From a virus, in the IMG/VR virus record IMGVR_UViG_3300009428_000004, positions 10,467 to 74,466 of that record: 64,000 nt of DNA; one strand, given 5' to 3'. The number at the start of each line of letters is the position of its first letter. Position 1 is the stretch's first letter. The position numbers and the translations under genes were made by a program. The notes under the pieces are model-generated. The model searched no databases. It was not told the origin of the DNA and worked only from the letters and a program-made list of their open reading frames with translations. Of the stretch, positions 26,421-56,763 are shown in pieces.

Positions 26421-26496
26421 TGGTGCGCTTGAAAGGATTCGAACCTTTGACCCTCGGTTTCGTAGACCGATATTCTATCCACTGAACTACAAACGC
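26421..26496 (-). tRNA. tRNA-Arg (anticodon ACG)
   Basis: GCGTTTGTAGTTCAGTGGATAGAATATCGGTCTACGAAACCGAGGGTCAAAGGTTCGAATCCTTTCAAGCGCACCA: cloverleaf with encoded CCA. Confidence 0.97.
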
Positions 26497-27585: not shown

Positions 27586-27662
27586 TGGCGTCCCCTGCAA
27601 GATTCGAACTTGCGACCTACGGCTTAGAAGGCCGTTGCTCTATCCAACTGAGCTAAGGAGAC
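27586..27662 (-). tRNA. tRNA-Arg (anticodon TCT)
   Basis: GTCTCCTTAGCTCAGTTGGATAGAGCAACGGCCTTCTAAGCCGTAGGTCGCAAGTTCGAATCTTGCAGGGGACGCCA. Confidence 0.97.
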
Positions 27663-29754: not shown

Positions 29755-29762
29755 TATAAATA
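29755..29762 (+). promoter_or_regulatory. Late promoter TATAAATA (plus strand)
   Basis: Exact match upstream of RBS TAGGAG and the lipase ATG. Confidence 0.8.
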
Positions 29763-29784
29763 AATTGATATAGGAGAAATAAAT

Positions 29785-30552
29785 ATGACCCAAATCACTT
29801 CACAACCAATACTAGTTCGTTCACTGTTATTCGCAAGGCTCTCACAGATAGCATACTTAGATGAACCAGAAGCAAGCAAGGCAGCCAGAGCATTAGGATT
29901 TACCACAACAGAGTTTTATGAAAGAGATGGAGCTCAGGCATACAGATTTCAAAATAAGTCTGATCTAGTTATCGCATGTAGAGGCACACAGCCTACGGAA
30001 TTTGGCGATATCAAAGCTGATCTAAAAGCATTCCCAGTATTAGCTGAAACAATCTCTAGAGTTCACAGCGGATTCAAGACTGAAGTAGACGATCTATGGC
30101 CGATGATTATTGAAGACATTGCAAGAACAGTAAACGCTAAGAAAATGCTATGGTTCTGCGGTCATTCTCTGGGTGCGGCAATGGCTACTATCATGGCGTC
30201 TAGATGTACTCACGATGATACACTAACTAGTCCTTCAATGGTATTTACGTTCGGTTCACCTAAAGTTGGTTGGCCAACATACTGTAAGTCTTTAGACGTT
30301 GTGCATCATAGATGGAAGAATAACAACGACATCGTAACTACTGTTCCTTTACGTGTAATGGGATATAAGCATCACGGTGAAGAGCATTACATCAATGCGT
30401 ATGGCTTAGTTAGGAATCCAACTGGATGGCAAAGAGTTAAAGATAAGTTTCGTGGTATTTGGATGGGATTAAAACAGGGCAAGATAGACTCATTCTCCGA
30501 TCATAGTATCGATGAATACATCAAACACATTGATAACGCTATTCGTGGATAA
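29785..30552 (+). CDS. Lipase class 3 (alpha/beta hydrolase)
   Basis: VIACRGT, VHSGF, nucleophile elbow GHSLGAAMA, FTFGSPKVG, DIVTTVP, FSDHSI. Confidence 0.92.
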   Translation: MTQITSQPILVRSLLFARLSQIAYLDEPEASKAARALGFTTTEFYERDGAQAYRFQNKSDLVIACRGTQPTEFGDIKADLKAFPVLAETISRVHSGFKTEVDDLWPMIIEDIARTVNAKKMLWFCGHSLGAAMATIMASRCTHDDTLTSPSMVFTFGSPKVGWPTYCKSLDVVHHRWKNNNDIVTTVPLRVMGYKHHGEEHYINAYGLVRNPTGWQRVKDKFRGIWMGLKQGKIDSFSDHSIDEYIKHIDNAIRG

Positions 30553-51914: not shown

Positions 51915-52718
51915 TTATACTCCAAATAACTTTTTTATGTCTTCGGGATTATCAAGGCTATACTTAGATTTGATATTTGTTTTTAATCTACCTTGACATC
52001 TATATCCAGCACCGACAACACGATAATCTTCGCCTTCAACTTTTCTCGCTTTACTTCCAGATGGTCCAAGTCTGAACTCGATATTCACAGAGCCTTTATA
52101 CTCAGGCACATCTAGCTTCAATGGATTACTGCCTAGATAAAACAGTCCTGCTTTACCAATCTGAATGTAGTACACATTCTTTCTATTGTATGCTTTTGCG
52201 ATAGTTCTTGCTGAATCAAAAGACTGAATGGTATTCATCTTCGCAAGATATCCAGCTTTCTGTGCCGCTGACCATGCTTCTTTTGTTACTGATCCAAATG
52301 GAATAGTATACGGAATCTTTTTATGTAATGCTAGTGGCTCTTGCTTACGAACGAAGTTGACCCAATCCTTTAGTGCCTTGTCTTGCTTCTTAGCCGCTTC
52401 TATAAAGAAGGGAATAGCGTCTTCGTCTACCGCATCGGGCTTGACTAGCGTGTGTGTCTTGTTTAACGTATCAATGCGAATAGAAGTACCACCCATTTGA
52501 GCGTTCTTATCCAGCTTGATTTCGATATTGAATTCTTTACCGTTATATAATGCTTCAATATCACCTGCGCCTTGGTTACTGTATCCTGCGCCTGGCTTAC
52601 TTCCAACATTTAGTCCTTCAATGCCCGCAGACTTCATCGCATCGAAAACTTTCTTCTCGTATGCTAGTCCCTTAGCGCCAACGCTTTCGGTAATAAAACT
52701 TTTAAATCTGACAGTCAT
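51915..52718 (-). CDS. PD-(D/E)XK nuclease-like protein
   Basis: GLAYEKKV...GDIEA...NIEIK; N-terminus MTVRFKSFITE. Confidence 0.6.
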   Translation of the reverse strand: MTVRFKSFITESVGAKGLAYEKKVFDAMKSAGIEGLNVGSKPGAGYSNQGAGDIEALYNGKEFNIEIKLDKNAQMGGTSIRIDTLNKTHTLVKPDAVDEDAIPFFIEAAKKQDKALKDWVNFVRKQEPLALHKKIPYTIPFGSVTKEAWSAAQKAGYLAKMNTIQSFDSARTIAKAYNRKNVYYIQIGKAGLFYLGSNPLKLDVPEYKGSVNIEFRLGPSGSKARKVEGEDYRVVGAGYRCQGRLKTNIKSKYSLDNPEDIKKLFGV

Positions 52719-53779
52719 TTTTTAACCTTAAATTTTGTATCGTTTGGATATTCACCAGCTTTAGAATTTCTCAACTCAATCACATAATCCTCAACGTCAT
52801 TGCTACACAATATAGTGATCTGCTTGGACGTTTTTGTAGGATACCTTATGCTATTAACTCGTATATTTTTAGATAGCTTATCCAACTTCGTTTTTCCTAA
52901 CCAGAAGACTTTCCATCCACTAGTTAATCGTCTCACATAGAAGTAGTTCATACCCCAGGCTCTGTTGAAAATCTTTTCGATTTCTCTTGCGTTAACTCTA
53001 GAGACTGAAAGCTTTGGTCTACCTATACTAGCAGTATTTATATTACCTCGTTCATCGAACCCCGATTGGACTTTATTCAAGTCTACGCCAAAAGTGTTTA
53101 AGAATGTAGCACCTTCAGAATCTGGCTGAAGATTTCCTTCTTTATCAAAGAGTGATGCGGCACCAGAGTACGAACTAAACGTATTGCCTTTAATATCTTT
53201 AAGTGAGATGTACCAAGTATTTCTTTGAGAATCAGTGAGAATGATGTCTCCAATAATAGCACCCAAATCTGCAATGGGAACGCCTTCTTTCTTAGTAGCA
53301 CCACGTCTCTGCGTAGCACTCACTATCTCTGAACTAGCAAATGGAGCGTGTGATTCGTTCATCATGGTAACTACTTTAGCTATCTCAGAGTTGCCTCTGG
53401 TCTTAAAGTAATCGTCTAGATTTGTCACTGTGCGTGTTTCAAACCTTTCGCCAGCATTCGCACCACGAGCAATGATTATATCAAACATTTGCCTATCAAA
53501 GATGAAAGAGTAACTAGGAAACTTAGAACTGTTTGGAGATATTTCATTGTACTTGATCTGCGTAATCTTAGGGTCTTGTCTTAGCTTATTACTCAGATGT
53601 GCGATACACGCTTTACTTGTATCTAGTTCTTTGTTTATGAGATTTAACCTGTACTCTCGATAGCGTTTATCATTAGAACCTGGTTTGCCTTTTGGAAACC
53701 GAGCGTTAAGCTCATAGTTCTTATTTTTTACCATAGAGTTCAGATTCTCTCCAAGTTTTTGATATACTTCTGCGCTCAT
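52715..53779 (-). CDS. Restriction-endonuclease-like hypothetical protein
   Basis: GERFE...GDIILTD...YISLK. Confidence 0.5.
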   Translation of the reverse strand: MSAEVYQKLGENLNSMVKNKNYELNARFPKGKPGSNDKRYREYRLNLINKELDTSKACIAHLSNKLRQDPKITQIKYNEISPNSSKFPSYSFIFDRQMFDIIIARGANAGERFETRTVTNLDDYFKTRGNSEIAKVVTMMNESHAPFASSEIVSATQRRGATKKEGVPIADLGAIIGDIILTDSQRNTWYISLKDIKGNTFSSYSGAASLFDKEGNLQPDSEGATFLNTFGVDLNKVQSGFDERGNINTASIGRPKLSVSRVNAREIEKIFNRAWGMNYFYVRRLTSGWKVFWLGKTKLDKLSKNIRVNSIRYPTKTSKQITILCSNDVEDYVIELRNSKAGEYPNDTKFKVKK

Positions 53780-54182: not shown

Positions 54183-54602
54183 TCATTTAGCCATTCTTGC
54201 TATTTCTATTGCTTGCTGTTGGTTGGTGATAGGTACTGCATTTGACTTGTGCATGGTGGCAATTCCGACGATGTAGTTTCCTGTGTACACTGGATTCTCT
54301 CGTTTTCTTCCCGATTGCGGGATTCCATGAACTGGGCTCTTCTGCGTGTTTGACGGATAATGCGGTTGCGGAACTGTTGGCGTCGGTTCATAAGGTACAA
54401 ATTTCCTTTTAGTAGGCTTTAGTTTACCAGATATATATGCAACATATCTATCCAGTGTGTCAAACTGACATGAGTGTAAATGCTTACGCCTCATCTCTTT
54501 ATTATATCTTCTCCACTCGATCTCTACTTTAGACATATCAAGTTTCTTGATCTTGCGTTTGCTCGTAGGAACGTACACGCCTTTTATCATGTGCATACTC
54601 AT
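54183..54602 (-). CDS. Conserved early hypothetical protein
   Basis: YTGNYIVGIATMHKSNAVPI; TTGACA-N17-CATAAT promoter at about 54631-54659. Confidence 0.75.
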   Translation of the reverse strand: MSMHMIKGVYVPTSKRKIKKLDMSKVEIEWRRYNKEMRRKHLHSCQFDTLDRYVAYISGKLKPTKRKFVPYEPTPTVPQPHYPSNTQKSPVHGIPQSGRKRENPVYTGNYIVGIATMHKSNAVPITNQQQAIEIARMAK

Positions 54603-54715
54603 ATGTATACTCCTCTATAAACTATGTTACCATTATGCACTATTTTATGCAGTTTGTCAAGAAATATTTTTATTTTTATTTTTTTATGGAAACGCTTGAC
54701 TCAGGTTTTCTTTTG

Positions 54716-54723
54716 TATAAATA
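54716..54723 (+). promoter_or_regulatory. Late promoter TATAAATA (plus strand)
   Basis: Exact match after a T-rich tract, with no gene downstream. Confidence 0.8.
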
Positions 54724-54727
54724 ACAG

Positions 54728-54888
54728 CATGGGTGCGTGTTAATGTGTAATACACAAGAGGCAAGTGTGATCGGTAATAATCAACTCACAGAAGGAATAG
54801 CATACGTTACATCTTTGATGTCCGTGGGGTTCGGGTATGCCACGCAAACTATCTAAAAAAAGGCAATCTTAACGACTGCCTTTTTTTT
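54728..54888 (+). ncRNA. Candidate late-expressed structured ncRNA
   Basis: Closing helix UGCGUG/CACGCA around hairpins UGUGU/ACACA, GUG-UGAU/AUCA-CAC and GCAUAC/GUAUGC; own promoter and terminator; no ORF. Confidence 0.7.
54855..54888. terminator. Bidirectional Rho-independent terminator
   Basis: AAAAAAAGGCA-ATCTTAACGAC-TGCCTTTTTTTT. Confidence 0.85.
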
Positions 54889-55326: not shown

Positions 55327-56763
55327 TTACTTTAGTTCACCAAAGTCTGGCTTACTTTTTGTTTTGTTTTGACGGTATGATAAGATATTATCTTTGTTCT
55401 CGCCCTTCTCTGCTTTCATTCTATCACCGAAAGAACCCTTATCTGCAACAGGTGTACTAGAATCATTAACTAGATCCTGTGCGCTATCTTCCGCATCAAA
55501 TAACTTCATCTTAGACCTATCAACACCGATGACAAATCTCTTAAGGTAATTGGTATCACCCCATCGATTTTTCAACTGCTTGACCATCAACTGTCCAAGA
55601 CCCTCAAGTTCTTCTGTAGATATCAAGCCAAACATAAAGTCAGCAGTAGCAGGTAGACCAAAAGACTCAGAAGTATCTTCGAGGTTTAAGTCTGAACTAC
55701 TGTAACCAGTACGAGTTGTTTGAGTAGCACTCAGAATGGGAACGTTGAATTCGACTGCAAGACCACGAAGTTCTTCAGCAATCGCTTTGATCAACGTGTA
55801 AGAGTTGACATTAGCACCAGCTTTCATCCTAGAACTTGTACATATATTTAGATAATCGATGTACACAATATCAGGAACAAAGTTCTTCTTTAGCTTTAAC
55901 TCATTTAACAAGTGTCTAAAATGTGCAGAACCAGCACTGGCAGTAGGATACTCTTTAACGATCAACTTACCAGTAGTCTTTGCTTTGACTCTACCGATAC
56001 GCTTCATGAATACATCCTTAGGCATATCTTGTAGACTATCCATAGTAGCATTCATTAAGTTAGCATCGATACGTTCAGATATTTTCTCTTCAGCCATTTC
56101 CATAGTGATATACAAAACATTCTTACCATCCATAAGATTGGCTGCCGCACAATGCGTCATAAACAATGTCTTACCAACACCAGTACCTGCTAGACAGATA
56201 CTCAAAGACTTTCTAGATAAACCACCTTTAGTGATCTTATTAAGTAGATCGAGATCAAAGGGTACCTTATCTTCTTTACTATGATAAAACTCATATCGAC
56301 TTTCAGTGTCTTCTAGGAAGTCATGACCAATAGCTTGATCGAATGACACACCTAAAGCTTTAGATAGGAGATCAGGAATAGACCCCTTATCTAGTTCTTT
56401 GTGATTACCATCTAGCACTAGAATAGACTCACGCACTGCATTAAAGACTGCTTTATCTTGGCAGAACTTCTCTGTCTTATCTACAATCCAGTCAAGATCA
56501 GTTTTATGATCATACTCTAAACCGTCAATCAAACTTACGATTTGTTGATACTGATCATCGCTGATATTGTCTTTCTCTTCGATAGCGATACGTAAGGCTT
56601 CTCTAGTAGGAATACCGTTGTAATCTTCGATATACTTCAGAATAGACCTGTACACCATTTTGTCACTGAAGTCGCCAAAGTATTCTTCAGTTAGAAAGGG
56701 TATGACTCTCCGCATGTAATCTTCATTGTGTAATAATCCCGCAAGTACGGTATTCTCAATCAT
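55327..56763 (-). CDS. 41: Replicative DNA helicase (gp41)
   Basis: LAGTGVGKT, YITMEMAEE, KEYPT, IDYLNIC, AEELRGLAVE, ATQTTR, SESFGLPATAD, KQLKNR. Confidence 0.97.
   Translation of the reverse strand: MIENTVLAGLLHNEDYMRRVIPFLTEEYFGDFSDKMVYRSILKYIEDYNGIPTREALRIAIEEKDNISDDQYQQIVSLIDGLEYDHKTDLDWIVDKTEKFCQDKAVFNAVRESILVLDGNHKELDKGSIPDLLSKALGVSFDQAIGHDFLEDTESRYEFYHSKEDKVPFDLDLLNKITKGGLSRKSLSICLAGTGVGKTLFMTHCAAANLMDGKNVLYITMEMAEEKISERIDANLMNATMDSLQDMPKDVFMKRIGRVKAKTTGKLIVKEYPTASAGSAHFRHLLNELKLKKNFVPDIVYIDYLNICTSSRMKAGANVNSYTLIKAIAEELRGLAVEFNVPILSATQTTRTGYSSSDLNLEDTSESFGLPATADFMFGLISTEELEGLGQLMVKQLKNRWGDTNYLKRFVIGVDRSKMKLFDAEDSAQDLVNDSSTPVADKGSFGDRMKAEKGENKDNILSYRQNKTKSKPDFGELK

Follow-up and report, generated by a model that had tools for sequence, protein, structure and literature searches.

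The plus strand of the window, the 64,000-nt stretch of a 91-kb IMG/VR virus contig that was analysed here, carries at 54716-54888 a self-contained unit made up of an exact TATAAATA box, an RNA of about 125 nt that folds into a four-way junction, and an intrinsic terminator. We consider it nearly certain that this is a genuine plus-strand gene for a structured non-coding RNA with a late-type box, and that it founds a family not described before. Homologues were found in about 250 IMG/VR viral contigs, with about 150 distinct sequences that fall into a long and a short form. The original prediction had proposed a multi-helix non-coding RNA on the plus strand, and it was upheld by helices that covary, by the asymmetry between G-U and A-C pairings and by reading frames that are not conserved. 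It had also given the RNA its own promoter and terminator; the TATAAATA box and the terminator proved to be conserved across about 150 distinct homologues. By its own terms it would have been refuted if homologues kept neither the helices nor the promoter. This was checked, and both are kept. All the elements it had listed were present on inspection of the window. Newness is claimed for the sequence and fold of the family and is not extended to mechanism.

Homologues of the RNA and searches against known families

Homologues were collected by four routes. The first started from loci that encode a protein related to the adjacent 139-aa one; the element was present in 15 of these loci, at 74-96% identity. 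In the second, three IMG/VR pattern scans were filtered with covariance model (CM) R1, which brought the set to 66 distinct sequences. For the third, 80 loci were picked solely because they contained a gp41 relative, independently of any motif. The RNA was present in 15 of the 61 gp41-sampled loci with at least 900 nt downstream of gp41, and nine of the RNA-bearing loci had a shorter, more divergent form. The fourth route, a scan for this short form, added 108 contigs with 77 distinct sequences, all confirmed by model R3. The RNA of the window itself scored 145 bits with R1 and 129 bits with R2. The length of the fold ranges from about 100 to 135 nt across the family, the minimal form being about 100 nt. 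Each genome has one copy; a second, weak CM match in locus L186 was rejected as not real (9 bits).

The carriers are uncultured marine and aquatic T4-like myoviruses of pelagimyophage- and cyanomyophage-like type. About 10 studies, with at least 15 marine metagenome runs between them, contain nearly identical DNA, and the phage is therefore common. No match was obtained when the element and three of its divergent variants were compared by blastn with 50,697 GenBank phages. A CM search of nine cultured or single-cell relatives (DLP_6, Melnitz-3, HTVC008M, C48C1, AG-345-E15, S-SM2, ACG-2014f, Bellamy and SynMITS9220M01) returned only chance-level matches. The 230-nt gap after gp41 in HTVC008M is unlike the RNA and by eye resembles an unannotated ORF. 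A pattern scan of 185,579 prokaryote genomes, one per species, gave 37 matches, about as many as our own estimate for chance; none of them fitted the CM, and no bacterial copy was found.

None of the 4227 models of Rfam 15, which include riboswitches, ribozymes, 6S, tmRNA, RNase P, SRP, pRNA and phage motifs, was met by the element. The best match within 1.6 kb was Thr_leader with 27.5 bits (gathering score 55), and it covered the terminator only. When the bare cores of three divergent members were searched at E values up to 10, no Rfam match exceeded 12 bits. ARAGORN reported no tRNA or tmRNA at the element. The claim that the RNA was not a tRNA and belonged to no recognised family was thus in agreement with both searches. 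The only ARAGORN finds in the window were two tRNA-Arg genes elsewhere on the minus strand (26421-26496 and 27586-27662, anticodons ACG and TCT). No description of the RNA family was found in the literature; a survey of pelagimyophage genomes (PMC7029224) reports no non-coding RNAs and states expressly that late promoters were not found.

Genomic position of the cassette

Nearly all genes of the window are on the minus strand, as had been described, and the single protein gene on the plus strand encodes a class-3 lipase/esterase of 255 aa (29755-30552). The RNA locus lies in a T4-type replication block with DNA ligase, a family-B DNA polymerase (gp43), UvsX and gp41. The gp41 gene (55327-56763) encodes a DnaB-like helicase of 478 aa, whose nearest cultured relatives, in Stenotrophomonas phage DLP_6, OM43 phage Melnitz, Pelagibacter phage HTVC008M and cyanomyoviruses, are just 57-60% identical. 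Two small ORFs are located downstream of gp41. The cassette was correctly placed downstream of gp41 by the original prediction, and it fills the gap between the end of a convergent 57-aa minus-strand ORF (54892) and the start of the 139-aa ORF (54602). A cis-antisense RNA was rejected, as the element is intergenic between these two nearest minus-strand ORFs.

The 139-aa gene (54183-54602) matches phrog_27048, of unknown function. It is headed by a near-consensus promoter of the sigma-70 type on the minus strand (TTGACA-17-CATAAT with an A/T-rich upstream tract, 54628-54662), which stands back to back with the promoter of the RNA. A 354-aa gene further downstream of gp41 (52715-53779, minus strand) matched an unknown PHROG, though only weakly; it was considered as gp61 primase and rejected, having no Pfam match. 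It is followed by a 267-aa ORF without a Pfam match, a DUF6267 protein, a 167-aa ORF and a 1006-aa cytidylyltransferase fusion.

The RNA was located just 3' of gp41 in all 48 long-form loci examined and in all 93 short-form loci that contain gp41, with zero to four variable small ORFs in between. The cassette is convergent with gp41 in the group of the window and co-oriented with it in 89 of the 93 short-form loci. Its own box and terminator are kept in both arrangements, which indicates that it is not an untranslated region of a neighbouring gene. In the co-oriented loci the next gene carries its own late-type box directly after the RNA terminator, so the terminator appears to be a real stop.

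These observations bear on a possible role in cis at the 3' boundary of the gp41 operon, where the element is constantly found. It might be a put-like modifier of the polymerase for read-through of terminators (into gp41 antisense or into downstream late genes) or else a 3'-end stabiliser or insulator of the operon. The terminator of the window is usable in both directions, and early read-through from gp41 would include the RNA in co-oriented members, both of which would suit such a role. An element of the gp41 3' UTR is nevertheless contradicted by the occurrence of the RNA in both orientations to gp41 with its own promoter in each, and the late box of the next co-oriented gene argues that transcription does stop at the terminator. 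The minus strand as the functional RNA is excluded by the pairing asymmetry described below. Even with its two versions taken jointly, we regard a cis-acting function as very unlikely.

The survey of the neighbourhood revealed no candidate partner protein that co-varies in presence with the RNA. No neighbouring small ORF was exclusive to RNA-bearing loci (cluster 5, for example, occurred in 13 loci with and nine loci without the RNA), and Pfam and PHROGs identified only NifU- and IscA-like proteins among these ORFs. A type III toxin-antitoxin antitoxin RNA was rejected: the RNA occurs as a single copy without tandem repeats, and none of the adjacent protein genes is conserved.

Several accessory genes were observed in this region. 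NifU-like (IscU) and IscA-like genes for Fe-S assembly are situated between gp41 and the cassette in loci L005, L015, L064, L105, L017 and L120. The gene directly after the RNA terminator in 24 short-form loci (34 by another count) encodes a protein of about 220 aa resembling HAD phosphatases and polynucleotide kinases, with a weak match to PHROG 415 (for example L411, 8552-9217); a TATAAATA box precedes it in L411 and L417, the two loci checked. Such a neighbour might point to functions in RNA-end repair in the vicinity of the RNA. The spot downstream of gp41 seems to be a preferred site for small RNA and accessory genes.

Promoter box and terminator

In the window the exact TATAAATA box lies at 54716-54723. 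Of 75 distinct long-form relatives, 71 share it, with its end 3-11 nt (mode 5) upstream of the RNA. The relatives without the exact box either reach the contig end or carry the variants CTAAATA or AATAAATA. All 75 testable members of the short form have a box at the matching distance, which is TATAAATA in 52 and NATAAATA or CTAAATA in 23. The window contains 12 copies of TATAAATA where 4.85 were expected, ten of them on the coding (minus) strand. The sole plus-strand copy other than that of the RNA is 22 nt upstream of the lipase gene, the single protein gene of that strand.

T4 uses TATAAATA as its late promoter, which depends on gp55, and initiates transcription about six bases downstream of the box. 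By this rule the transcript is predicted to start at A54729. Late transcription in these phages is an inference that rests on the T4 meaning of the box. Within the limits of a sequence comparison, the conserved box is direct comparative evidence for putative T4-like late promoters in these uncultured phages. A -35-like hexamer, TTGACT, is located 14 nt upstream of the box (54696-54701). Hexamers of the form TTGAC[AT] occur 14-15 nt upstream of the box in 14 of the 71 long-form members and in none of the short form; judged by its sequence, TTGACT could permit some use by host sigma-70, and with it earlier transcription, in this phage, and it is no feature of the family.

The intrinsic terminator, GGCAAUC...GACUGCC followed by U8 (54881-54888), occupies 54858-54888, and the predicted hairpin with a U8 tail was confirmed there. 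A terminator, defined as a hairpin of -8 kcal/mol or lower with a T-run within 70 nt, was present in 74 of 75 relatives with unrelated stem sequences. The suggestion that the terminator also serves the converging minus-strand gene was supported in the window, where an A7 run on its opposite side makes it usable both ways.

Transcript data were sparse and uninformative. One marine metatranscriptome contig of 295 nt from a relative includes part of the RNA together with 90 nt ahead of the promoter; its depth resembles that of the neighbouring genes, and carry-over of DNA is not excluded. The metatranscriptome runs contained small shares only.

Secondary structure of the RNA

The structured core (54729-54852) is a four-way junction of P0/P1, P2, P3 and P4 that is supported by the CM and by covariation. 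P1 is formed by UGCGUG (54734-54739) and CACGCA (54841-54846); it was 96-98% paired, and all six of its pairs covary in the diverse and short-form alignments. Below it, a possible pairing P0 of AUGG (54729-54732) with CUAU (54849-54852) would join the extreme 5' end to the bases right before the terminator. P0 is weaker, with 75-81% paired. The P2 hairpin UGUGU-AAU-ACACA (54744-54756) was 97-99% paired and covaries at five of five pairs, while its loop varies in length and sequence. P3 (54766-54790) has the base UGUGA (54766-54770)/UCACA (54786-54790), 80-92% paired, with compensatory changes at most pairs in the diverse and short-form sets and a distal part that is variable in length and sequence. 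The helix P3 had been correctly recognised, but the register proposed for it, GUG/CAC plus UGAU/AUCA, was not; covariation favours UGUGA/UCACA.

P4, GCAUAC (54800-54805) with GUAUGC (54835-54840), directly abuts the 3' strand of P1 with no linker and encloses two hairpins. P4a, ACAUC-UUU-GAUGU (54809-54821), is optional within the family and is missing in 72 of 74 short-form members. P4b, CCG-UGGGGUU-CGG (54822-54834), consists of 3 bp (54822-54824 with 54832-54834) and a seven-base loop. In the original prediction this helix had been drawn as UCCG/CGGG; CCG/CGG was retained, and the leading U was given up since it is already taken by P4a. P4, P4a and P4b were 99-100% paired, with three to five pair types per position.

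On its own, the plus-strand core did not fold significantly better than shuffled sequences (z = +0.2), and the window alone therefore could not decide the matter; the comparative data do. Four alignments were evaluated against shuffled controls. A2, with 48 distinct sequences, was 96.2% paired and had compensatory changes at 22 of 33 pairs and a covariation score of 0.427 (0.175 shuffled). A3, with 66 distinct sequences, was 95.2% paired, compensatory at 28/33 and scored 0.492 (0.194 shuffled). The corresponding values were 93.9%, 32/33 and 0.580 (0.214 shuffled) for the 52 distinct sequences of A4, and 93.5%, 26/33 and 0.531 (0.166 shuffled) for the 74 of A5. Not one of 500 shuffles matched the observed score in any alignment. 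When the 3' partners were slid by one to three columns, the score fell to 0.03-0.11, against 0.43-0.58 in the true register. Alignments A2-A5 were fitted to the model, which somewhat favours the structure; the initial MAFFT alignment already contained whole-helix swaps, from GCAUAC/GUAUGC to ACUGGG/CCCAGU and to ACUGGU/ACCAGU. No consecutive covarying pairs were found beyond the nested structure that would add pseudoknot helices.

The minus strand folded better than the plus strand as a single sequence (z = -2.9), a result that is misleading by itself. It was overruled by the composition of the paired columns, in which G-U and U-G occupy 84 cells and A-C and C-A only 5. The plus strand is hence the RNA.

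Coding potential

The original prediction had stated that the region held no usable ORF. This was not correct for the window, as a GTG ORF of 39 codons (54737-54856) does span the element, though it is not conserved. A small late protein gene was accordingly considered, either this ORF or a leaderless one beginning with the AUG at 54729, and an open frame likewise spans the element in several relatives. The longest plus-strand ORFs nevertheless differ between members in frame, start codon and peptide, and the protein reading was rejected for this reason. One- and two-base length differences lie inside the element, the peptides are unrelated across subgroups, the spanning ORF had no match in PHROGs, and substitutions are paired across helices and not placed at third codon positions. 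The chance that the element encodes a protein is in our opinion negligible. A start-stop mini-ORF, GUG-UGA, was dropped because it is not conserved.

Fixed single-stranded elements

Three elements are constant in all forms of the RNA, including those found only through gp41: GGCA in J2/3, GGAAUAG in J3/4 and UGGGGUU in the loop of P4b. The purine-rich linkers AAGAGGCAAG and GAAGGAAUA of the original prediction are present as it described them. J2/3 (54757-54765) is a 9-nt purine-rich linker, AGAGGCAAG, with a constant GGCA core. GGCA was unchanged in every inspected member, and AAGAGGCAAG is constant in the long form, where A-AGAGGCAAG was invariant in 66 of 66 members; this invariance was partly forced by the search pattern, the flanking A being unforced. 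In the gp41-based and short-form sets, which were collected without the J2/3 motif, the consensus was G-N-GGCA-N-G. J3/4 (54791-54799) is likewise a purine-rich linker of 9 nt, GAAGGAAUA, with an invariant GGAA and the consensus GGAAUAG. The loop UGGGGUU and its closing pairs were constant in every member. Although the search patterns partly force the invariance of some motifs, the pattern-free gp41-based sample supports GGCA, GGAAUAG and UGGGGUU.

The long-form 5' motif GGGUGCG is nothing other than P1, and other paired sequences replace it in the short form. A 3' extension, (A/U)GGGUGCUAA, was observed between P1 and the terminator in L059, L174, L196, L187 and L274; it repeats the 5' motif GGGUGC. 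A Shine-Dalgarno mimic or anti-SD sponge was dropped because GAGGCA is replaced by GCGGCA or GUGGCA in distant members. Only one GGA-type site is conserved in the RNA, whereas such sites are numerous in CsrA sponge RNAs.

Invariant unpaired stretches of 7-10 nt are also what a seed-type small RNA would need, and UGGGGUU, AAGAGGCAAG and AGGAAUAG might pair with pyrimidine-rich sites in host or phage RNA, such as AACCCCA. The stand-alone gene with its promoter and U-rich terminator is like sRNA genes in this respect, and the strong U-tailed terminator together with A-R-N-like purine repeats would suit an Hfq-type chaperone. Apart from one exact 10-mer on the non-coding strand, however, the 91-kb phage genome gave only chance-level matches. 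That search covered the phage genome only, the host being unknown. For this class it would also be unusual to have a four-way junction in which the strands are invariant and linkers have zero length, and we think it unlikely that the RNA acts by seed pairing.

Possible functions of the RNA

An autonomous gene for a small structured non-coding RNA, acting in trans on an unknown partner late in infection, is on balance the best overall explanation and a reasonably probable one; that it is transcribed, and late, is inferred. More narrowly, we favour late-phase binding of the folded RNA to another macromolecule, most likely a protein; this preference is tentative and is held at less than even odds, without any partner identified. 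This reading is drawn from the closed unit that works in either orientation, the paired termini and the fixed elements on a variable scaffold. Paired termini are typical of stable RNAs.

In the proposed mechanism, a gp55-type phage RNA polymerase would transcribe the cassette late, from about A54729 to the U8 tract. The product would be an RNA of about 160 nt with its 5' and 3' ends paired together. Its rigid scaffold would present GGCA, GGAAUAG and UGGGGUU or fold them into one tertiary core, and the elements so presented would bind the partner in trans during the late phase. The partner would most likely be a phage or host protein, the RNA serving as a decoy, a sequestering RNA or a scaffold in a ribonucleoprotein.

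A limit on the trans-acting reading is that small-molecule aptamers and ribozymes just as typically have invariant nucleotides in their junctions. The RNA might thus work without protein as an aptamer or ribozyme, its core being formed by the invariant junction nucleotides with the UGGGGUU loop docking onto it. Conservation is indeed concentrated in the junction strands and one loop, with peripheral helices that are variable or dispensable, and the abutting of P4 and P1 without a linker along with very clean covariation is a pattern typical of riboswitch aptamers and ribozymes. An expression platform, on the other hand, is absent: the spacer between P1 and the terminator varies from 0 to 30 nt and is not conserved. 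The longest helix between the 5' arm of the terminator and the 3' part of the RNA averaged 5.1 nt, against 5.3 nt for shuffled arms; this lack of excess complementarity disfavours a riboswitch-type switch. The core alone had no similarity to Rfam riboswitches or ribozymes at E values up to 10, and a single copy with its own promoter is unlike the contexts of self-cleaving ribozymes. We therefore rate a protein-independent aptamer or ribozyme as distinctly unlikely.

It is also conceivable, with low probability, that GGCA, GGAAUAG and UGGGGUU form the catalytic or the ligand- or RNA-binding core of a new class of self-sufficient late RNA in marine T4-like phages. If so, base pairing of the loop with the anticodon loop or the CCA end of a tRNA would be possible (5'-UGGGG-3' being complementary to 5'-UCCCA-3'), as would multimerisation through G-quartets, and the RNA could be packaged together with late internal proteins whose genes lie nearby.

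Whatever its activity, structural selection on the RNA family is strong, and its carriers are abundant marine phages. Its minimal form of about 100 nt is suited to biochemistry and structure determination. Identification of the partner or activity would reveal a new RNA-based step late in the infection cycle of a phage group that dominates ecologically. We know of no dedicated late non-coding RNA in T4-type phages, although these are the large phages studied best.

Comparison with known RNAs

The GOLLD, ROOL, manA and wcaG motifs are orphan structured non-coding RNAs that were discovered by comparative genomics in phages and metagenomes (PMC2864571). Like these, the RNA described here was found through covariation in environmental sequence, is borne by phages and has no assigned function, and manA and wcaG likewise occur in marine T4-like phages. 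It is much smaller than GOLLD or ROOL. Whereas manA and wcaG are 5' leaders of genes, the new RNA is a closed unit of promoter, RNA and terminator with a late-type box.

The pRNA of phi29 is similarly a phage-encoded structured RNA of about 120 nt with its own promoter that works folded with proteins. It is the model behind the packaging role that the original prediction listed beside a protein decoy, an anti-defence RNA and an sRNA. It is, however, confined to phi29-like podoviruses, multimerises via complementary loops and is represented in Rfam, in which the new RNA had no match; no self-complementary loops were found in the new RNA. To our knowledge, packaging motors of the T4 type require no RNA. 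Terminator riboswitches share with the new RNA a multi-helix junction, invariant junction nucleotides and an adjacent intrinsic terminator, but the new RNA lacks antiterminator pairing, the convergent loci lack a controlled gene, and in co-oriented loci the following gene carries a late-type box of its own.

RNAs C and D of T4 (species 1 and 2) are likewise small stable RNAs of T4-type phages with unknown function. Their transcription and processing go together with those of the tRNA cluster, and they are not known to be late. Cultured cyanophages place a tRNA gene in the gp41-downstream region, but the new RNA has neither cloverleaf proportions nor a T-loop. In cyanophages S-SM2, Bellamy and SynMITS9220M01 (loci L372, L374 and L375), which are without the RNA, mazG and a tRNA-Ala gene are located in this region.
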